A stretch of 64,000 bases of DNA from Candidatus Lustribacter sp. (GTDB taxonomy: Bacteria > Vulcanimicrobiota > Vulcanimicrobiia > Vulcanimicrobiales > Vulcanimicrobiaceae), in contig OZ255842.1 of the NCBI GenBank assembly GCA_965277805.1, positions 1,472,001-1,536,000 of the forward strand, in the 5' to 3' direction. The translations under genes and the position numbers were made by a program. Under the pieces are notes generated by a model. It searched no databases, had not been told where the DNA came from, and saw only the letters and a list, made by a program, of their open reading frames with translations. Below are positions 23,730-32,328 of the stretch, piece by piece (positions within the stretch are counted from its first letter, which is position 1; every line of letters begins with the position of its first letter).

Positions 23730-24818
23730 ATCAGCGATCGCCTCGACGACGCGTCGGCGTACGCGTACGATTTGCCTGAAGAGCGCATCGCGCGGACGCC
23801 GGCGGAACGGCGCGAAGATGCAAAGCTGCTCGTCCTCGGACCGCACGGCGAATTGCACGACCGCACGTTCGCTGCGTTCCCCGAACAGCTGCGCCGCGGC
23901 GACGTGCTCGTGCTCAACGAAACGCGGGTCATCCCGGCCCGGCTGCGCTTCGCTCGTCCCGGCGGCGGCGCGGGTGAATTGCTTCTGCTGCGCCCGGCCG
24001 ACCGCGATGCCTTCGCGTTCGACGCGCGGAGGTGGTATGCGCTGGTGCGTCCGGCGAAACGGCTGCCGGCCGGAACGCGCCTGACGGCCGGCGGCGCGGG
24101 CCTCGCGATCGAAGCGGTCGCGAGCGACGGGCGGCGGATCGTGCGCTTCGATGACGGCGTCGACATCGCGGAATTGCTCGAGCGCGCGGGCGAACTGCCG
24201 CTGCCCCCCTACGTCGGACCCGGCGACGACGCGCGTGCGGCCCGCTACCAGACGGTCTTCGCGCGGGTCCCGGGCAGCGTCGCCGCGCCGACCGCCTCGC
24301 TCCACTTCACCGAAACCGTGCTCGCCGCGATCGCCGCCCGCGGGGTCGAAATCGTGCGGCTGACGCTCGATGTCGGGATCGGAACGTTCCGGCCGATGCG
24401 CGAGGGTCCCATCGCCGCGCACAAGATGCACGGCGAGCGCTACGGCATCTCCACGGAGACGGCTGCCGCCGTCAACCGCGCGAAGGCCGAGGGCCGGCGC
24501 GTGATCGCGGCCGGCACGACTGTGGTTCGGGCGCTCGAGGGCGCCGCCTTGGCGGATGGTACCGTTCACTCCGGCTCCGCCGAAACGGACCTTTTTATCA
24601 CCCCGGGGTTCCGGTTCCGGGTCGTGGACGCGCTGCTGACGAACTTCCACCTGCCCCAGTCGACGCTGCTGGTGCTGGTGAGCGCGTTTGCCGGTTACGA
24701 GCGGACGCGCGCCGCCTATGCGGCAGCCATCGCCCGGGATTACCGATTCTTTTCGTTCGGCGACGCGATGTTCGCAGAACGCACCGACCCGAAGCCGAAG
24801 GAAAGCCGTCATGGGTGA
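23730..24818 (+). CDS. queA: S-adenosylmethionine:tRNA ribosyltransferase-isomerase (start uncertain: ATC 23730 or TTG 23772)
   Basis: YDLPEERIA, LVLNETRVIPARL, GELPLPPY, YQTVFA, GSVAAPTASLHF, GTFRP, GTTVVRALE, TNFHLPQS, YRFFSFGDAM. Confidence 0.96.
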   Translation: MSDRLDDASAYAYDLPEERIARTPAERREDAKLLVLGPHGELHDRTFAAFPEQLRRGDVLVLNETRVIPARLRFARPGGGAGELLLLRPADRDAFAFDARRWYALVRPAKRLPAGTRLTAGGAGLAIEAVASDGRRIVRFDDGVDIAELLERAGELPLPPYVGPGDDARAARYQTVFARVPGSVAAPTASLHFTETVLAAIAARGVEIVRLTLDVGIGTFRPMREGPIAAHKMHGERYGISTETAAAVNRAKAEGRRVIAAGTTVVRALEGAALADGTVHSGSAETDLFITPGFRFRVVDALLTNFHLPQSTLLVLVSAFAGYERTRAAYAAAIARDYRFFSFGDAMFAERTDPKPKESRHG

Positions 24819-25164
24819 CACCCCGATCCTGGAAATCTCGCGTCTCGAGGAGATCTTCGAAGACGACTCGGCGGGGATCGCCGATCTGCTCGAAGCGGCG
24901 ATGGGAACCGGGGCCACCAATCAGGCCACGCTGCGCGATGCGCTCGCGCGGCACGCGCTCGATGACGTCATGCGGGCGGCCCACGCGATCAAGGGTAGCA
25001 CCGCCAACATCGGCGGCAACGAGGTCGCGGCGGTCGCCGCCCGGATCGAGGATGCCGCACGGGCGCAAACGTGGGACGGGATCGAGCCCGCGGCAATCGA
25101 ACTCGACGAAGCCTACGAGCGCTTGCGCGAGGCCGTTCGCGCATATCGAGCGGGAATTACGTGA
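24811..25164 (+). CDS. Stand-alone Hpt (histidine phosphotransfer) protein
   Basis: AAHAIKGSTANIGG motif; all-helical; 117 aa. Confidence 0.9.
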   Translation: MGDTPILEISRLEEIFEDDSAGIADLLEAAMGTGATNQATLRDALARHALDDVMRAAHAIKGSTANIGGNEVAAVAARIEDAARAQTWDGIEPAAIELDEAYERLREAVRAYRAGIT

Positions 25165-26231
25165 ACAGCAACGCCAACAGCACGCCGAACAAAGTCCTCG
25201 TCGTGGACGATGTCGAGACCAACCTCACGGTCTTCGCCAAGGTCGTTGCGCAAATTCCCGAGACCGAGGCCGTGTGCTTCACCTCCGCGGTCAAGGCGCT
25301 CGAATGGGCGAGTCAAAACGAGTGCGTGCTCATCATCGTCGATCAGAGCATGCCCGAACTGAGCGGCATCGAGTTCATCTCGCAAGTCCGCGCGCGCGGC
25401 AACAGCTACACGCCGATCGTGATGATCACCGGGCACAGCGAGAAAGAACTGCAGCGCGAAGCACTCAAGCTGGGAGCCTCGGCGTTCTTGGGCAAGCCGG
25501 TCGATCCGGTGGCGTTCGTCAGCCTGGCACGCAATCTGATCCAGCTGCGCGGCGCGCGCCTGGAAACGATGGCGAAGGCCGGCGCGGCCCACGCCGATCA
25601 GCAATCGGCAACCGAAGCGCTCTTCGCACAAGAGCGCGCCACGCTCGAAGCACTGGTGAAGATCATCGATCTGCGCGACCCGCGCACCGGCGACCACTGC
25701 CGGCGCGTCGCGCTCTTCAGCGAAGCGATTGCGAGCAAGCTGGGCCTCTCAATGATCGAGGTAACGCAGCTGGCGCAAGCCGCGCGCATCCACGACATCG
25801 GCAAACTATCGATGCCCGATCGCGTGCTCTACAAGACATCGCGACTGCTCGGTGAGGAGCGCGATGCGGCGAAGAAGCACGTGATCGACGGAACCGCGAT
25901 GCTGGCCGGTCTCAATACGCCGATCCTGCATGCCGCAGCCGAGATCGTGCACTCGCATCACGAACGCTTCGATGGCTCCGGCTACCCGGCAAAACTGGCC
26001 GGACCCGCCATACCGCTTTTCGCGCGCATCGTCGCAGTGGCCGACACGTTCTCGGCGCTCACCTCGCGTCGCCCGTGGCGCGAGGCCGCTTCGGTAAGCA
26101 TCGCCGTCGAACAGATCGAGAAAGAATCGGGCTTCGGGTTCGAGCCGAAGATCGTCGGCGCGTTCCGGGACGTGATGCCGGAGTTGCTCGACATCCGGGC
26201 CGAAGTTCCGGATCTCGTCGCCGCGAAGTGA
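25161..26231 (+). CDS. REC + HD-GYP response regulator (RpfG-like c-di-GMP phosphodiesterase)
   Basis: VLVVDD, IIVDQSMP, TG, KP receiver; TGDHCRRV, HDIGK, HHERFDGSGYP, ARIVAVADTF. Confidence 0.92.
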   Translation: MNSNANSTPNKVLVVDDVETNLTVFAKVVAQIPETEAVCFTSAVKALEWASQNECVLIIVDQSMPELSGIEFISQVRARGNSYTPIVMITGHSEKELQREALKLGASAFLGKPVDPVAFVSLARNLIQLRGARLETMAKAGAAHADQQSATEALFAQERATLEALVKIIDLRDPRTGDHCRRVALFSEAIASKLGLSMIEVTQLAQAARIHDIGKLSMPDRVLYKTSRLLGEERDAAKKHVIDGTAMLAGLNTPILHAAAEIVHSHHERFDGSGYPAKLAGPAIPLFARIVAVADTFSALTSRRPWREAASVSIAVEQIEKESGFGFEPKIVGAFRDVMPELLDIRAEVPDLVAAK

Positions 26232-26335
26232 GTTAAGCGAGCGCTCAACGCCGTTGTCGCCTCGTGCGACTCGCGGACCGAAATAACCGTGCCTTAACGC
26301 TTGGCCGGTGCCTAAAGTGACCATGTTGTGGTACG

Positions 26336-27919
26336 ATGGGGTACAATGGAATTGCCAGGCATGCGCTGAGCACGCGTCTTGTCATTGCCACTCGGGTGTG
26401 GCGTGACGTCTCTGGACGCGGTAAAGGCGTTCCGGAATTATCGCGTGCCAACGCCGAACTGACGCGCAAAATTTCCGAACTCGAGCAGAAGTTGGCGGAG
26501 CGTACGACCGCACGCGACGACGTTGCTCGCGAACAGGCGCTCACCGAACTCGCGCGCACTAACGCTGAACTCAAGCAGCGCTTGGCCGAACGGACGATCG
26601 AACGCGACGACGTCGCACGCGAAGAAGCCCTCGCCGAGCTGGCGCGCACGAACGCCGAACTCAAGCAGCGCCTGGCCGAGCGCACGATCGAACGCGACGA
26701 CGTCGCACGCGAAGAAGCCCTCGCCGAGCTGGCGCGCACCAACGCCGAACTCAAGCAGCGGCTGGCCGAACGCACGATCGAACGCGATGACGTCGCCCGT
26801 GAAGAAGCCGTCGCGGAGCTGTTGCGCACCAACGCCGAGTTGAAGCAACGCCTCGCCAAACGCACGATCGAACGCGACGACGCGGCGCGTGAGGAAGCCC
26901 TGACGCAGCTCTCGCGCACGAACGCCGAGCTGAAACAGCAGTTGGCCGCGCGGACGATCGAGCGCGACGACGCGGCGCGCGAGGAAGCGGTCACGGAGCT
27001 CTTACGCACCAACGCCGAACTCAAGCAGCGGCTGGCCGAGCGGACGATCGAGCGCGACGATGTCGCTCGCGAGGAAGCGGTCACGGAGCTCTTGCGCACC
27101 AACGCCGAACTCAAGCAGCGGCTGGCCGAACGGACGATCGAACGCGACGATGTCGCCCGCGAAGAAGCCGTCACGGAGCTGTTGCGCACGGACACGGCGG
27201 AAGAACAGTCGCGCGTGCACGCAGCCGAACTCGAAGTGCTCAACGACGAGCTGGAAAGTTTCAGCTATACCGTCTCGCACGATCTGCGCTCACCGCTGCG
27301 CGCCGTGCTGGCCTATACCAGCGCACTCGAGGAAGATTACAGTTCGCTGCTCGACGAGGAGGGACGGCGGCTCTTGAACGTCGTGCACGCCGAGGCCGGC
27401 CGCATGGGCGATTTGATCGACGATCTCTTGGCCTTCTCGCAACTCGGCCGGAAGCATATCGTGAGCGTGCCGATCGACATGGACAGCCTCGTTCGCGAAG
27501 TCGTCAAAGCCCAAACGCAAATGGGCGGCGAGGGCGCCGTCTTCGACATCGGCCCGCTGCCGAGCGTGCGCGGCGACCGGTCGCTGCTGCGTCAGGTCTG
27601 GACGAACCTTATTTCAAACGGCCTCAAATATTCGAGCAAGAAGGATCATCCGAACGTGCACATCTGGGCCGTCACCGAAGAGAACCGCGTCGTCTACAAC
27701 GTGCAAGACGACGGCGTCGGCTTCGACATGGCGTACGCCGACAAGCTCTTCGGCGTCTTTCAACGGCTGCACCGCAGCGAAGAATTTGCCGGCACCGGCG
27801 TGGGCCTCGCGATCGCGCAGCGCGTCGTGGAGCGCCACGGCGGCACCATCTGGGCCGACGCCAAACTCGGCGAGGGTGCCACCTTTTCATTTGCACTTCC
27901 TAGTGGAGAAAATGCATGA
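26336..27919 (+). CDS. Cph1/BphP-type histidine kinase with N-terminal tandem 30-aa coiled-coil repeats and no sensor domain (start uncertain)
   Basis: ELESFSYTVSHDLRSPL H-box, WTNLISNGLKY N-box, DDGVGF, LFGVFQRLH, GTGVGL; no TM or PAS/GAF seen upstream. Confidence 0.92.
   Translation: MGYNGIARHALSTRLVIATRVWRDVSGRGKGVPELSRANAELTRKISELEQKLAERTTARDDVAREQALTELARTNAELKQRLAERTIERDDVAREEALAELARTNAELKQRLAERTIERDDVAREEALAELARTNAELKQRLAERTIERDDVAREEAVAELLRTNAELKQRLAKRTIERDDAAREEALTQLSRTNAELKQQLAARTIERDDAAREEAVTELLRTNAELKQRLAERTIERDDVAREEAVTELLRTNAELKQRLAERTIERDDVAREEAVTELLRTDTAEEQSRVHAAELEVLNDELESFSYTVSHDLRSPLRAVLAYTSALEEDYSSLLDEEGRRLLNVVHAEAGRMGDLIDDLLAFSQLGRKHIVSVPIDMDSLVREVVKAQTQMGGEGAVFDIGPLPSVRGDRSLLRQVWTNLISNGLKYSSKKDHPNVHIWAVTEENRVVYNVQDDGVGFDMAYADKLFGVFQRLHRSEEFAGTGVGLAIAQRVVERHGGTIWADAKLGEGATFSFALPSGENA
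26450..27190 (+). repeat. Intragenic tandem repeat: seven 90-bp units preceded by one diverged 111-bp unit
   Basis: AACGCYGAR unit starts at 26561, 26651, 26741, 26831, 26921, 27011, 27101; consensus NAELKQRLAERTIERDDVAREEA(L/V)(A/T)EL(A/L)RT. Confidence 0.97.
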
Positions 27920-28359
27920 GCGAGTTCGACGACGTCGAGATCCTCTTAGTCGAGGATAATCGGCAAGACGCCGAGATGACGATTCGCGCGTTGAAGAAGT
28001 GCAGCATTCTCAACAAACTCTTCTGGGCGAAGGACGGGGTCGAGGCGCTGGATTTCGTTCGCTGTCAAGGAGCTTACGAAGGCCGCGACCCGAGTCAAGT
28101 TCCGAAACTGATCCTGCTCGACCTCAAGATGCCGCGCCTCGACGGGCTCGACGTGCTGCGCGCCCTGAAGTCCGACCAGAAAACGCGCCAGATTCCGATC
28201 GTCGCGATGACCTCCTCGAACCAGGAACGCGACGTTACCGAGAGCTACCGGCTCGGGGTCAACGGCTACGTCACGAAACCCGTGCAGTTTGCGGCATTCA
28301 TGGAGGCCGTTGCCAACGTCGGCATGTACTGGCTGTTCGTCAATCAGACCCGGACGTGA
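27916..28359 (+). CDS. Single-domain response regulator, Rcp1-like
   Basis: ILLVEDN, DGVEALDF, ILLDLKMP, TSS, YVTKP, GMYWL. Confidence 0.93.
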   Translation: MSEFDDVEILLVEDNRQDAEMTIRALKKCSILNKLFWAKDGVEALDFVRCQGAYEGRDPSQVPKLILLDLKMPRLDGLDVLRALKSDQKTRQIPIVAMTSSNQERDVTESYRLGVNGYVTKPVQFAAFMEAVANVGMYWLFVNQTRT

Positions 28360-29093
28360 CCGCCGTAAGCGACGAGCAGCAGCGCGCCGCAATCGAAGCG
28401 CTCGAGACCGAACTGGAGAGCATCTGCTACTCGGTCTCGCACGATCTCCGCGCCCCCGTGCGTGCCGTGATCGGATTCGCGCGGGCCCTGGAAGATGAGT
28501 ACGCCGCACGACTCGACGTCGAGGGCCGGCGCTTGCTGCAGGTGGTGGTTAGCGAGGCCGGACGCGTCAATAGCTTGATCGAGCAACTGGTGGCGTTCTC
28601 GCGGTTGGGACGTCAGGCGATGGAATCCATGCCCATCGACATGTCGCTGCTCGCCCGCAGCGTCGCAGCCGAACTTTTCGAGTCGGGCGGCCCGGACCAC
28701 GCAATCCTCGAAATCGACGACTTGCCGGCCGTTAGCGGCGATCGCGCTTTGCTGCGCAGCGTGTGGGAGCACCTGATCGCGAATGCCGCGAAGTTCGCAG
28801 GCCGGCAACCGATTCCGCGGTTGCACATTCACGGGACGGCCGAGCCTGGCCGGGTCATCTATCACGTGCGCGATAACGGGGTCGGCTTCGACATGGCCTA
28901 CGCCGATAAGCTCTTCGGTCTCTTTCAACGCATGCAGAACGATGCGGCCTATCCCGGTACGGGCGTCGGCCTCGCCATGGTGCAGCGGATCGTGCATCGC
29001 CACGGAGGCACCGTTTGGGCCGATGCCAAGCTCGGCGGTGGCGCGACGTTTTCATTCGCGCTGCCGGCCGCATCGCCGCCCGGCGCACGCTGA
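28356..29093 (+). CDS. Sensor-less Cph1-type histidine kinase (HisKA + HATPase only)
   Basis: GTG overlapping upstream TGA; ELESICYSVSHDLRAP near the N-terminus; LIANAAKF, DNGVGF, LFGLFQR, GTGVGL. Confidence 0.88.
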   Translation: MTAVSDEQQRAAIEALETELESICYSVSHDLRAPVRAVIGFARALEDEYAARLDVEGRRLLQVVVSEAGRVNSLIEQLVAFSRLGRQAMESMPIDMSLLARSVAAELFESGGPDHAILEIDDLPAVSGDRALLRSVWEHLIANAAKFAGRQPIPRLHIHGTAEPGRVIYHVRDNGVGFDMAYADKLFGLFQRMQNDAAYPGTGVGLAMVQRIVHRHGGTVWADAKLGGGATFSFALPAASPPGAR

Positions 29094-29533
29094 TGGATGA
29101 GTTTACCGGTATCGAGGTCCTGCTCGTCGAGGACAACGAGCACGATGCGGAACTGACCATGCGCGCCTTCAAGAAATGCAACCTGCTACAAAAGCTCTAT
29201 TGGGTCAAGGATGGAGTGGAGGCGCTTGATTTCATCGCCGGTGCGGGCGCATTCGCGGCGCGCGATGCACAGGAGCTCCCGCGCTTGATCCTGCTCGACT
29301 TGAAAATGCCGCGCTTGAACGGCATCGACGTGTTACGTTCGCTGAAGTCGAACGAGCGTACGCACGCGATCCCCATCGTTGTCATGACATCTTCGAGCGA
29401 ACCGCGTGACCTCGATGAATGTTACAACTTAGGGGTCAACGGCTACGTGGCCAAACCGATCGAGTACACCGGACTCACGGAAGCGGTGGCGCGGATCGGC
29501 ATGTTCTGGCTGCTGGTCAACCGCGTTCCGTGA
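29093..29533 (+). CDS. Single-domain response regulator, Rcp1-like
   Basis: TGATG overlap; VLLVEDN, ILLDLKMP, TSS, AKP, GMFWL. Confidence 0.93.
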   Translation: MDEFTGIEVLLVEDNEHDAELTMRAFKKCNLLQKLYWVKDGVEALDFIAGAGAFAARDAQELPRLILLDLKMPRLNGIDVLRSLKSNERTHAIPIVVMTSSSEPRDLDECYNLGVNGYVAKPIEYTGLTEAVARIGMFWLLVNRVP

Positions 29534-32328
29534 ACCAGGCTAGGCGAGAATCCGCGGCTGCCGGCGCGCCGAAGCAGATCGCGGTTCTCATCATCGACGA
29601 CAACCCGCTCGATTCCGAGCTCGCGTGCATGGAGCTCAGGCGCGCCGGCGTCACCACCGAGTTCGTCGTTGCAGCCGACCAGCAGCAATTGCGCGAGGCG
29701 CTGAAGCTCATCGTTCCGGACGTGGTTCTGTGCGATTTCTCCTTTCCGGACTTCGACGGCTACGCCGCGCAGAAGGTCGTCCACGAATCCTTTCCCGATG
29801 TGCCGCTGATCTTCGTCACCGGAACGATCAGCGAAGCGCGCGCGGTCACTGCCGTTCAAGCCGGCGCCGTCGACTTCGTGCTTAAGTCGAACCTCACGCG
29901 TTTACCGAGCGTAGTAGAACGCGCCGTGCGCGAGGCTCGCGAGCGCAAACGGCTCGTCGTTTCGCTCGAGAGTGCGGAAGAGCGCTCGCGCCGGCAAGCG
30001 CAGCGGCTGGAATCGCTCTGGCGCATCCTCAACGATCCGCGCTTGCAAGGGCCGGCCCTGATCACCGCACTGCTACGGCAAGCAGCGGCTGCGCTGCGCT
30101 CGGAGCAACACTTTCGCGGCACGCTCTCGCGAGTTGAAAGCGAGATCGTCGAGACGATTGCGATCGGAATCAGCTCCACCGACCAAGACCGGCGCATGAC
30201 CGGACCGGAGGTCGGCCATCGCCGCAAGCTCTCCGGGACGATCATTCCCAGCGTTTCCCGTTCGGCGGCCTGGGATGATCTGTGCGCGATGCCGACGCTC
30301 CCGGATGACTTGGCGAAACGCGGCTGGCGTTCGGCGATCTGCACGCGCTTCGATGCGGCCGGTTTACGCTACGCGCTGACCTTTGCGTCGCCCGATGTCA
30401 CCCAGATCGCGTTCGGTTCCGAAGATATTGCCTACGTCGAAGTGCTCGGCGCCTCGATCGCGCGCCTGATGGAAGTCAACGAACTCACGGATACGCTGCG
30501 CGAGGCCGAAGAACGCTCGCGCCAGCATGCCGCGCGCCTCGAAGCCCTCTGGGGACTCGTCAACGACCCGAGTTTGCGCGACGAAGAGCTGTGGCCCGCG
30601 ATGCTCGCGCAAGCCGGAAGCGAATTGCAGCCGGGTCAGAACTACCGCGGGACGCTGTGGCAGATCCAGAATGACGAGATGGTTGTCGTCGCGTTCTACG
30701 CGGCCCCGGGCGAGTCCGACGAAAGCATTACCGGCGGTATCGGGTTCACGCGTCCCTTGCAGACGACGCTCGTCGGCGAAATGCTGGCGCAGGGCGGCGG
30801 GACGCGATCGTGGGACGATACGCGTGAAACGAAGCGCGGGCACGCGTTCGCGGGCATGGGCCAATCGCGCGCGCTCGTCGCAACGACGTTCAGTGCCGGC
30901 GGCACGCAGTGGGCGCTAACATTTACTTCGATCAGTCCGGCGAAGAGACGCCTGCGGGCCGAAGAGAACGCGTATATCGAAATTCTCGCGTCCTTTTTTG
31001 CCAACCGGGTCCAACAGCGCTGGCAATTCGAACGCATCCAATTCCAGCAATCGCACGACGTGCTGACGGGTCTTCTAAGCCGCTCGCAGTTTCGGGCGCA
31101 GGCCCGCTCGGCATCCCGGACCGGGGCGCGCTATGCCGTCATCGTGGTCGACATCAACGCCTTCCGCGAGATCAACGAGTCCTACGGTCACATGATCGGC
31201 GACGCGATCCTGGTCGAAGTCGGCAGCGCGCTGTTGAAGCGCGCATCGGGAGCCGAGATCGTCGGGCGCGTCGGCGGCGACGTCTTCGCGATCTATATTG
31301 CCAACCCGGTGTCGCGTGACTTCGTGCTGAGCCGGGCAGCCCACTTCGCCGGCGCGTTTGGCGAAGGGTTCTCCACCGGCGATGCTCACGGAACCGAGTT
31401 CGTTTCGCGGACGGCGAACCTGGGCATCGCCCTCGCGCCGGAAGACGGAACGGAGTTCGACGTCATTCTTTCGCGCGCCGAGGCGGCGCTGCTCAGCGCC
31501 AAGCAGCGCGGTCACGCGACGACCGTCTTCTTCGAACTCGGAATGGAAGGCGATGCGCATCGCCGCGCAACGTTGCGCAACGAACTCGCGGATGCGATTT
31601 CCAACGATCAGTTCACGCTGTACTACCAACCTCACGTCGAGCTCAGCACCGGCGCCGTTACGGGCTGCGAGGCCCTGATTCGCTGGAATCATCCGGAGCG
31701 CGGGCTGGTGCTGCCCGGCAACTTCATCCCGTTTGCCGAGCAGTCGGGAATGATCACGGCGATCGACGACTGGGTGTTACGCAATGCTTGCGAAGCTTCG
31801 AAAGAGCTCGGATCGATGCGGCCGGGATTCCGGCTGTTCTTCAATCTTTCGGGGCGGCAGGCCGGCGACCCGAAGCTGATCCGCGCGCTGTCCGCAGCGG
31901 CCCGCAAGGGCGTTGCGCTGGAGAACCTCGGCGTCGAGATCACCGAGAGCGACGCGATGCGCGACGTCGAGGCCACGCGCCGCGTGTGCCGGGCGCTGCG
32001 CAAACTCAACGTCCGCGTCGCAATCGACGATTTCGGGACGGGGTACTCCTCGTTGTCGTTTCTCAAGCGCCTGCCGGTCGATATTGTCAAGATCGATCGC
32101 AGCTTTATCTCCGGCGTGCTCAGCGATCCGCACGACGAAACGATCGCCGAGACGATCATCGCCATTTCCGAGCGCTTCGGCTTCCAGTCCTTAGCCGAAG
32201 GCGCCGAACAAGATGCGGAAATCGAATGGCTGCGGCAGCGCGCGTGTCACTACGTCCAAGGTTATGCAATTTGCCACCCGCTCCCGATGCAGGAGTTCAA
32301 GTCATGGCTGAACGCGCGCCCGACATAG
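29530..32328 (+). CDS. REC-GAF-GAF-GGDEF(degenerate GGDVF)-EAL protein, probable c-di-GMP phosphodiesterase
   Basis: IIDD / LCD receiver; two similar ~177-aa GAF-like modules; HDVLTGL, INESYGHMIGD, RVGGDVF; YQP, EALIRW, EITES, DDFGTGYSS, KIDRSF, AEG, QGY. Confidence 0.92.
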   Translation: MNQARRESAAAGAPKQIAVLIIDDNPLDSELACMELRRAGVTTEFVVAADQQQLREALKLIVPDVVLCDFSFPDFDGYAAQKVVHESFPDVPLIFVTGTISEARAVTAVQAGAVDFVLKSNLTRLPSVVERAVREARERKRLVVSLESAEERSRRQAQRLESLWRILNDPRLQGPALITALLRQAAAALRSEQHFRGTLSRVESEIVETIAIGISSTDQDRRMTGPEVGHRRKLSGTIIPSVSRSAAWDDLCAMPTLPDDLAKRGWRSAICTRFDAAGLRYALTFASPDVTQIAFGSEDIAYVEVLGASIARLMEVNELTDTLREAEERSRQHAARLEALWGLVNDPSLRDEELWPAMLAQAGSELQPGQNYRGTLWQIQNDEMVVVAFYAAPGESDESITGGIGFTRPLQTTLVGEMLAQGGGTRSWDDTRETKRGHAFAGMGQSRALVATTFSAGGTQWALTFTSISPAKRRLRAEENAYIEILASFFANRVQQRWQFERIQFQQSHDVLTGLLSRSQFRAQARSASRTGARYAVIVVDINAFREINESYGHMIGDAILVEVGSALLKRASGAEIVGRVGGDVFAIYIANPVSRDFVLSRAAHFAGAFGEGFSTGDAHGTEFVSRTANLGIALAPEDGTEFDVILSRAEAALLSAKQRGHATTVFFELGMEGDAHRRATLRNELADAISNDQFTLYYQPHVELSTGAVTGCEALIRWNHPERGLVLPGNFIPFAEQSGMITAIDDWVLRNACEASKELGSMRPGFRLFFNLSGRQAGDPKLIRALSAAARKGVALENLGVEITESDAMRDVEATRRVCRALRKLNVRVAIDDFGTGYSSLSFLKRLPVDIVKIDRSFISGVLSDPHDETIAETIIAISERFGFQSLAEGAEQDAEIEWLRQRACHYVQGYAICHPLPMQEFKSWLNARPT

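Follow-up and report, generated by a model that had tools for sequence, protein, structure and literature searches.

The 64,000-nucleotide (nt) stretch analyzed here, hereafter the window, covers positions 1,472,001 to 1,536,000 of contig OZ255842.1 (assembly GCA_965277805.1) of Candidatus Lustribacter sp. and contains a histidine kinase gene whose input region is a tandem array of 30-residue repeats resembling the signaling helix (S-helix). The kinase, protein P0001, comprises 527 amino acids (aa) and is encoded on the + strand by an open reading frame (ORF) at 26336-27919. With HisKA at 54.1 bits (cut-off 26.9), HATPase_c at 86.9 bits (cut-off 26.4), and the H-box 'SHDLRSPL', it is a class I histidine kinase. 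Upstream of HisKA, the Pfam scan of P0001 returned nothing above cut-off, no Pfam match to a PAS-GAF-PHY photosensory module was present in the protein at E <= 0.01, and the 19-residue hydropathy maximum is 0.69 over its entire length. This bears out the claim of an earlier sequence-only reading that no transmembrane (TM) helix, PAS, or GAF domain precedes the repeats. The array is placed between a short leader and the dimerization and histidine phosphotransfer (DHp) domain, as listed in Table 1 together with the neighboring genes.

Tandem Repeats Finder reports the repeats as a single array at 26475-27189 with a period of 90 bp, 7.9 copies, 85% matches, 0% indels, and a score of 828. The spacings of the landmark 'NAEL' in P0001 are 37, 30, 30, 30, 30, 30, and 30 residues. 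In the sequence-only reading, seven exact units had been placed at 26561-27190, which is the same array in a frame shifted by 15 nt, behind a first unit longer by one heptad (7 aa); unit 1 indeed comprises 37 aa as opposed to 30. On the DNA level, any two of units 2-8 differ at 6-22 nt out of 90. Over codon positions 1, 2, and 3, the variable columns are distributed as 7, 4, and 23, and the codon columns divide into 16 with synonymous variation only, 7 with residue changes, and 7 invariant ones. Pooled over units 2-8, the Nei-Gojobori proportions of synonymous (pS) and nonsynonymous (pN) differences are 0.475 and 0.064, a ratio of 0.135. Hence, with mostly synonymous differences at this degree of divergence, the unit copies are old in DNA, and their protein sequence has been held constant. 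The protein-level selection proposed earlier from synonymous differences thus withstood a dN/dS-type check.

Table 1. Positions in the window of the array kinase, its parts, and the neighboring genes
Feature	Position	Strand	Evidence or remark
Array kinase P0001	26336..27919	+	ORF, Pfam
Leader, 33 aa, domain-free, contains 'VWRDVSGRGKGV'	26336..26434	+	Leader kept in G002, G003, and P0064
Unit 1, aa 34-70, 37 aa (30 + one heptad)	26435..26545	+	
Units 2-8, aa 71-280, seven exact 30-aa (90-bp) S-helix-like units	26546..27175	+	
Partial ninth unit ('ELLRTD', 6 aa, from aa 281) and class-specific helical linker into DHp	27176..27253	+	
HisKA (DHp), aa 307-371; phospho-acceptor His315 = codon 27278-27280	27254..27448	+	Pfam 1.6e-14
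HATPase_c catalytic domain, aa 413-523	27572..27904	+	Pfam 1.6e-24
Hpt phosphotransfer protein	24811..25164 (ORF listed from 24688; start approximate)	+	Pfam Hpt 6.5e-13; ATG of 'MGDTPIL' overlaps queA stop
REC-HD-GYP (HD_5) phosphodiesterase for cyclic di-GMP (c-di-GMP)	25071..26231 (start probably ~90 nt downstream)	+	Response_reg 2.7e-20, HD_5 1.8e-35
REC1 single-domain response regulator	27916..28359 (start overlaps kinase stop)	+	Response_reg 2.9e-19
HK2 kinase, bare DHp and catalytic (CA) domains, 245 aa	28356..29093 (GTG overlaps REC1 stop)	+	
REC2 single-domain response regulator	29015..29533 (start probably ~29093)	+	Response_reg 1.2e-17
REC - ~380 aa - GGDEF - EAL protein	29419..32328 (start probably ~29527)	+	Pfam; orthologs 932-970 aa

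The unit reads E1 L2 A3 R4 T5 N6 A7 E8 L9 K10 Q11 R12 L13 A14 E15 R16 T17 I18 E19 R20 D21 D22 V23 A24 R25 E26 E27 A28 L29 A/T30. In the parts of PMC1592074 that were available, the S-helix is described as an element of ~40 residues in five heptads that lies 'almost always between two signaling domains' and carries N10 at core position 'a', E14, R16, E19-R20-T21 at positions c, d, and e of the central heptad, and E23. According to the same text, conserved polar residues are a defining trait of single S-helices, their downstream outputs include histidine kinase, PP2C, and GGDEF domains, and in Sln1 and guanylyl cyclases, for which T-to-I and R-to-C mutants, respectively, are described, the ERT signature is tied to switching on and off. 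N6, R12, E15-R16-T17, and E19 of the unit show a spacing identical to that of N10, R16, E19-R20-T21, and E23 of the S-helix, so that in both an Asn at a core position is followed by L, R, L, E-R-T, and E. Across 470 distinct units (from 605 in-register units of the best 120 of 192 homologs, collected with a profile built from P0001, a selection that inflates all conservation figures given here), these residues are conserved to 86% (N6), 84% (R12), 82% (E15), 98% (R16), 97% (T17), and 100% (E19). The counterpart of E14, unit position 10, is K in 56% or E in 27% of the family. The resemblance to the S-helix claimed by the sequence-only reading therefore stands as a motif-level match, with the signature at the exact published spacing.

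The likeness extends to the downstream outputs, which are likewise histidine kinase, PP2C, and GGDEF, and to an array predicted to be all-helical and rich in conserved polar residues. In contrast to the single S-helix of ~40 residues, the unit comprises 30 residues and is repeated 2-14 times, no domain lies upstream, and the second half of the unit departs from the heptad register. Herein, the a/d pattern holds at positions 2, 6, 9, 13, and (16), and the following a-positions are occupied by Arg (position 20, 99%) and Glu (position 27). Of the two flanking domains that typify the family, the downstream one is present (HisKA in P0001; PP2C and GGDEF in relatives), and upstream there is only the 33-aa leader. 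In its mode of action, the array would thus be comparable to an S-helix or a coiled-coil linker, and its units bear the S-helix signature, but it departs from the published family in two features, length and position. A phmmer search of the PDB with the array sequence gave 0 matches at E <= 1.

Conservation within the unit is not limited to this signature. L13 is invariant (100%) like E19, followed by R20 and D21 (99%), A24 (98%), A28 (97%), L9 (96%), A14 (95%), R25 (93%), R4 (92%), and E8 (88%); 20 of the 30 positions are conserved to at least 82%. Fourier analysis of information content over the 30 columns peaks at 30/8 = 3.75 residues, with a power of 2.97 and the next term at 1.47. In a permutation test, 41 of 20,000 permutations reached a 3.75 term as high (p 0.002), where the k=8 term had been chosen as the α-helical one after the spectrum was seen. 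The mean information is 3.93 bits for the stripe 2, 6, 9, 13, 17, 21, 24, and 28, as compared with 3.12 for the remaining positions; a heptad a/d series carried on through the unit averages 3.43. The non-heptad, 2x15 periodicity noted earlier agrees with this conservation profile. The peak is compatible with a single unbroken helix that is conserved along one face in a 15-residue (four-turn) pattern, as far as can be read from sequence. Along this face, the first half of the unit presents L, N, L, and L as in a normal zipper, and the second half presents T, D, A, and A, which are polar or small. Above ~3.6 residues per turn, coils are wound right-handed, as stated in the available text of PMC6798134. 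A Fourier analysis of hydropathy gave a dominant period of 5.0 with 3.75 second; it was deemed less meaningful, Ala being heavily weighted on the scale. Between aa 34 and 306, Gly and Pro are entirely absent (count of zero).

Single α-helical (ER/K) domains combine a very high E/R/K content with the lack of a hydrophobic seam. The array does not fit this architecture, having an invariant L9/L13 seam, a charged fraction of 45% (95/210), and 13% Leu.

The homologs indicate that the array is not confined to one type of signaling protein. A word-seeded search with aa 30-300 yielded 192 proteins, the best 120 of which were listed and classified by precomputed Pfam domains; since many are metagenome fragments, all unit counts are lower bounds. 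All 120 listed homologs contain 2-14 units in strict 30-aa phase. HisKA/HATPase_c kinases form the largest class (64 proteins with 2-10 units, median 5), followed by SpoIIE/PP2C phosphatases, mostly with an RsbW-like HATPase_c_2 (35 proteins, 3-14 units), and hybrid kinases with REC and with or without Hpt (16 proteins, 3-5 units). The remainder comprises three HisKA-only fragments (4-6 units), one GGDEF-EAL protein, P0064 (4 units), and one protein with no domain (6 units). All classes share the end point of the array, which lies after 'ELxRTN', and the distance from there to the output is fixed for each class. From the start of the last unit, it amounts to 64 aa to the phospho-accepting His in 65 of 68 kinases of the P0001 type (63, 63, and 61 in the others), to 57 aa to 'SHE[IL]RTP' in 15 of 16 hybrid kinases, and to 48 aa to 'EHRAS' in 33 of 35 PP2C phosphatases. 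Identical units ('ELARTNAELKQRLAERTIERDDVARDEALT') are shared by kinases, hybrid kinases, and PP2C proteins.

The N-terminal sides of these proteins are informative about the leader of P0001. In the PP2C class, the motif '...AY.WRD[VL]..R.RAI.EL' stands immediately before the array in 21 of 35 proteins. A full hydrophobic 19-mer precedes this juxtamembrane motif in 5 of those 21 and is also found in P0039 and P0059; most of the remaining motif-bearing PP2C proteins begin within the hydrophobic segment. The P0001 leader retains 'VWRDVSGRGKGVPEL' with no hydrophobic segment, so that its 'VWRDVSGRGKGV' appears to be a degenerate relic of the juxtamembrane motif that follows the TM helix in the PP2C class. 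The leaders of most other kinases are short and rich in Pro and Lys, and a PAS domain upstream of the array occurs only in P0058 among the 120 listed. The sequence-only reading had derived the array from an amplification of the kinase's own linker, which does not agree with three observations. The pre-DHp segment of P0001 itself (aa 287-306) is devoid of the ERT motif, the same array is found N-terminally on all three main output types, and the leader looks like a relic. Because arrays of 2-14 units front several output types and the leader is relic-like, the array is best described as an inherited, portable module that usually opens the protein and sometimes follows a membrane anchor, and not as a private expansion. 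Most likely, as judged from these comparisons, P0001 inherited or acquired its array rather than amplifying its own linker.

One homolog, P0064, deserves separate mention. Its leader is that of P0001, its four units end in the unit-5/6 junction of P0001 ('...EEALTQLS'), and the array is followed by a close match to the middle and C-terminal part of the REC-x-GGDEF-EAL protein of the window. It looks like a deletion fusion of the array-kinase operon, which may exist in nature as a variant or be a chimera within a metagenome contig.

The array module is rare. Among the 49,694 stop-to-stop ORFs of its own genome, only the P0001 gene contains it. In an even sample of the phylum (Eremiobacterota), with only six candidates scored in each genome, a match to the array at E <= 1e-10 was obtained for 14 of 401 genomes, including 12 of 296 within the same family and 1 of 30 in another family. 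Two genomes (G015 and G036) match in the kinase core only. An exhaustive HMMER search of 1.84 billion cluster representatives gave 44 matches at E <= 1e-3 and 21 at E <= 1e-10, and the array carriers are assigned to Candidatus Eremiobacteraeota/Vulcanimicrobiota. The weak tail of this search consists of other repeats of helical type, whose periods are 33 (P0125), 33 (P0129), 32/36 (P0143), and 28 aa (P0137). The last of these, an unrelated protein of 486 aa with no signaling output domain visible, carries a C-terminal repeat with a period of 28 aa ('ELKQQLEQRTQERDE...') and a core, 'L..QL..RT.ERD', similar to that of the array; this repeat may be analogous or a distant relative in the canonical heptad register. 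The best ESM Atlas matches of the array (0.90, 157 shared features; Bacteroidota clusters) lay within the chance range and were discarded.

The kinase gene is embedded in a compact signaling cluster that is flanked by housekeeping genes, queA upstream and an NFACT-family gene downstream. The gap between the REC-HD-GYP gene and the array kinase is 104 nt, and the REC-HD-GYP ortholog in G002 has 356 aa. HK2 is translationally coupled to REC1 and 56% identical to the core of the array kinase; it has no input region and only ~26 residues before its H-box. The order array kinase, REC, (HK2), REC, and REC-x-GGDEF-EAL is kept in G002, G003, and G370, and in G030 and G209 one or both small REC genes are missing from the filtered ORF set. 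The HD-GYP gene is present at the G002 and G003 loci and Hpt at that of G003. The coupled receiver proteins carry c-di-GMP enzyme domains, and, going by gene order alone, the output of the system is therefore likely to be c-di-GMP turnover via phosphorylated receivers.

Based on these data, we infer for both structure and function that the array forms a long, polar-cored, non-heptad coiled-coil stalk that is continuous with DHp helix 1 and sets the kinase output, a reading to which we assign a probability of roughly 0.45. Herein, the array would be one uninterrupted helix of ~270 residues, roughly 40 nm in length, running into DHp helix 1 without a break, and in the kinase dimer it and its twin would form a parallel coiled coil of two strands. 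The core of this coil would follow the 15-residue pattern with 3.75 residues per turn instead of heptads, each unit alternating between a hydrophobic half (L2, N6, L9, and L13) and a polar or small half (T17, D21, A24, and A28). The array would take the place of a sensor domain, and the tightness or register of its zipping would set the kinase/phosphatase balance of the DHp-CA core. As input, either some physical or ionic condition or a partner bound to the repeated surface might serve. Phosphoryl groups would then pass to REC1, REC2, the REC-GGDEF-EAL protein, and the upstream REC-HD-GYP protein, possibly via Hpt, and c-di-GMP turnover would result. The ERT signature, the fixed phase to each output, outputs that match those of S-helices, and near-total selection on the residues would all favor such a stalk.

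Single S-helices and coiled-coil linkers set the kinase/phosphatase balance behind PAS, GAF, or REC domains. Among these, the linkers of the light-oxygen-voltage (LOV) kinase YF1 (PMC6798134) and of BvgS (PMC4810494), as far as the available parts of both papers describe them, resemble the array as proposed here in that they run on into DHp helix 1 and keep a fixed phase to the His; unlike the array, which makes up the whole input region, they are short, heptad-periodic, and driven by a sensor. For the engineered LOV kinase, activity depends on linker length with a heptad periodicity (PMC6798134, in the same available part). A further parallel is the methyl-accepting S-helix of RsbK from Bacillus cereus, in which, according to the accessible text of PMC4574943, an S-helix is likewise a regulated element of a kinase. 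Genes for CheR, CheB, or RsbM were not found among the 22 window proteins scanned (12.7-39.8 kb), and a generic class-I methyltransferase lies near only one of five related loci. A comparison of the unit with the methylation consensus of methyl-accepting chemotaxis proteins, made by eye, gave no match and was given no weight. For the kinase core of P0001, the best-matching model is that of the LvrA kinase (NF047465, E 6e-70), with a score far below the family cut-off, and the Joint Genome Institute (JGI) names some homologs 'light-regulated ... (bacteriophytochrome)'. As opposed to Cph1, bacteriophytochrome, and LvrA kinases, P0001 possesses neither PAS-GAF-PHY nor a REC domain on the kinase. 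The adjacent receiver genes are, we presume, Rcp1-like in look.

Several observations weigh against the stalk reading. To begin with, the conservation figures on which it draws are inflated by the P0001-built profile and the choice of the best 120 of 192 matches. Nearly every surface position is conserved (such as R4, D21, and R25), which is more than a stalk needs, and this surface conservation fits a binding surface at least as well as a coiled-coil stalk. The array is unmatched in Pfam and NCBIfam, so that homology to the S-helix on the profile level could not be demonstrated. A profile of the 30-aa unit found no other linker among the six-frame ORFs of its own genome (best foreign E 0.52), such a profile being too short and too specific to retrieve other S-helices. 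HK2, within the same operon, shows that kinases here exist without an input region, and the array may be dispensable for basic kinase activity. No result points to any stimulus.

Structure predictions speak partly for and partly against the stalk reading. The AlphaFold2 (AF2) monomer, computed without an alignment, is all helix, with helices of 85-113 residues drawn over several units and an unbroken helix, of low predicted local distance difference test score (pLDDT), at 248-335 through the His box. The mean pLDDT of the model is a poor 57, and the helix folds back at 117-123 and 237-247; with low confidence and fold-back combined, the monomer was considered unusable for the question of a coil. 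An ESMFold2 model of two copies of aa 31-527 reached a score of 0.39, with 0.00 for the best of three controls. Of the proteins solved as same-chain pairs, 21 of 30 reach the dimer mark applied, as against 0 of 23 among those solved as a single chain. Agreement between runs was at least 23% of contacts, and the pLDDT of the partner was at least 60. Confident contacts were confined to the DHp bundle at 295-368, and there were none in the array. The passing of this mark may reflect the likeness of the model to solved kinase dimers.

The first alternative takes the conserved surface as its starting point. In a multivalent docking rail, the repeated, invariant, and charged surface would bind one and the same partner (a protein, or else a ligand such as a nucleotide) in several copies and thereby recruit it to the output domain or regulate the latter. 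Such a rail would explain why positions that are exposed in a coiled coil are conserved (R4, E8, A14, D21, and R25, with 92%, 88%, 95%, 99%, and 93%), and identical units 'ELARTNAELKQRLAERTIERDDVARDEALT' across kinases, hybrid kinases, and PP2C proteins are expected for one common partner. However, conserved polar residues also typify single S-helices, and, receivers aside, no gene is common to the five loci checked, which were kinase loci and did not include PP2C loci. The unit is also unlike the c-di-GMP-binding helix motifs of the BldD and RsiG types, a comparison by eye to which no weight was given. We consider the docking rail doubtful.

Equally tentative is a broader form of the argument, in which the array would be a self-contained input module, either a cooperative, right-handed, polar-cored 'rod sensor' or a docking rail, that Eremiobacterota would exchange freely among kinases, hybrid kinases, PP2C phosphatases, and c-di-GMP enzymes. 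It is on the whole unlikely to hold. If it did, signaling proteins would respond to temperature, ionic strength, hydration, or a common partner with no need of a globular sensor domain, and the unit number would set the sensitivity.

A second alternative ascribes no sensing to the array, which would be a passive stalk or dimerization handle, or a membrane spacer in the phosphatases, left over by inheritance in the soluble kinase and with regulation exerted by the receivers. The N-terminal TM helix and juxtamembrane motif straight before the array in the PP2C class are in line with this, as are the degenerate anchor relic in P0001, a unit number anywhere between 2 and 14 that favors no value, and the bare kinase HK2 in the same operon. 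On the other hand, a mere spacer would not be expected to conserve 20 of 30 positions to at least 82% or to show a pN/pS of 0.135 at a pS of 0.47, and in Sln1 and the guanylyl cyclases the ERT signature relates to on/off switching. A passive role is thus rather improbable.

HEAT-like and PBS-lyase repeats consist of two antiparallel helices per unit of ~31-33 aa with Gly, Pro, or Asp in the turns. That the array is a helical-hairpin solenoid of this kind, forming a superhelix that binds a ligand or protein, was suggested by the exhaustive search, which drew in helical repeats of ~30 aa with the pattern 'L.R.AER..DD..VR..A' (P0125, 3e-28; P0129, 4e-17; P0143, 6e-8). Tandem repetition inflates these E-values, however, and the look-alikes have periods of 33, 33, and 32/36 aa in place of 30. 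Two of the three are richer in Gly and Pro (0.087 and 0.149 versus 0.000 in the array), and the array contains no turn-forming residue at all and is drawn by AF2 with helices of 85-113 residues, which makes a solenoid very improbable. Least credible of all is that the array has no function and stems from an echo of the assembly or from recent neutral slippage: although no single read or contig crosses the whole array and a relative (G006, locus L008) has unknown bases in its own, the seven exact units mutually differ at 6-22 nt and are not echoes, exact unitigs tile the array, two further genomes have the same 8 units, and selection is evident.

The read-level support is as follows. In run X5, seven overlapping short-read unitigs tile 26000-27700 with 0 differences; one of 292 nt covers more than three units, and none covers the entire array. 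As X5 may be the source sample of the genome, this amounts to consistency and not to independent proof. Runs X1-X4 contribute small shares only, the pieces from X4 being short and partly unlike. The orthologs in G003 (98% identity) and G002 (83%) contain the same 8 units, the longer first unit included. Across the kinase orthologs, the unit number is 8 in G000, G003, and G002 and ~10-11 in G030, G209, and G370; hence, the copy number shifts at the genus scale and not at the strain scale. Since the close orthologs all have 8 units and only distant ones differ, this stability argues against fast tuning by unit number. In G030, the array has a two-unit (60-aa) super-repeat, with an identity of 0.90 for units i and i+2 versus 0.84 for neighbors. 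The matrix of unit identities between G000 and G002, for which the unit filter dropped the last unit, shows no clear diagonal, with means of 0.82-0.86 within arrays and 0.74-0.84 between genomes, a weak hint of unit turnover between the two.

G030 belongs to another family of the class, yet its array kinase (L004/L018, G030:C9) is 76% identical, has the same neighbors, and contains 10-11 units; the operon may have arrived there by lateral transfer. At locus L008 (G006:C73), a PP2C-class carrier in a genome of the same genus, the array contains unknown bases and is split over two frames. Such arrays are hence hard to assemble from short reads, and unit counts in draft genomes are unreliable.

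S-helices and coiled-coil linkers are thought to be passive-looking yet decisive switches between sensors and enzymes, and how they work is still debated. Here, the switch element appears isolated, with the sensor removed, multiplied 2-14 times, and attached to at least three enzyme types with fixed junctions. This provides a natural series of length variants for asking what an S-helix does alone and how a 30-residue period is accommodated; the series also suits the question of whether a polar ERT core yields a coil responsive to physical conditions. Compared with the published S-helix, the apparent novelty is a sensor-less tandem form with a 30-residue period that occurs on kinases, phosphatases, and a cyclase/phosphodiesterase and keeps the ERT signature. 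A description of tandem S-helices was not found in the full-text literature, subscription journals not being covered, nor was any literature on coiled-coil tandem repeats in kinases. Publications on histidine kinases of Eremiobacterota, judged by their titles and the beginnings of their abstracts, did not deal with the array. The array looks like a previously undescribed module of a little-known soil phylum, portable and serving as input or stalk.

A few minor features of the cluster remain to be described. The stretch of the REC-x-GGDEF-EAL protein between aa ~160 and 540, which has no Pfam match, shows two similar halves by eye, each opening with 'EERSR..A.RLE.LW...NDP', and may be a duplicated sensor domain. 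The HK2 ortholog in G003 is found in two pieces (query 287-444 and 447-525), either a broken gene or an assembly error. In the window, queA and Hpt overlap in different frames (23772-25164), and in G003 (L021:5939-7246) they form a single 436-aa ORF with Queuosine_synth and Hpt, which points to either a genuine fusion or a frameshift in one of the two assemblies. Upstream of the ATG of the array kinase, no obvious Shine-Dalgarno sequence is present, and translation may begin either at aa 1 or at a GTG further on. A 10-bp direct repeat (consensus GGTACAATGG, 2 copies, 90% match) at 26330-26349 overlaps this annotated ATG.

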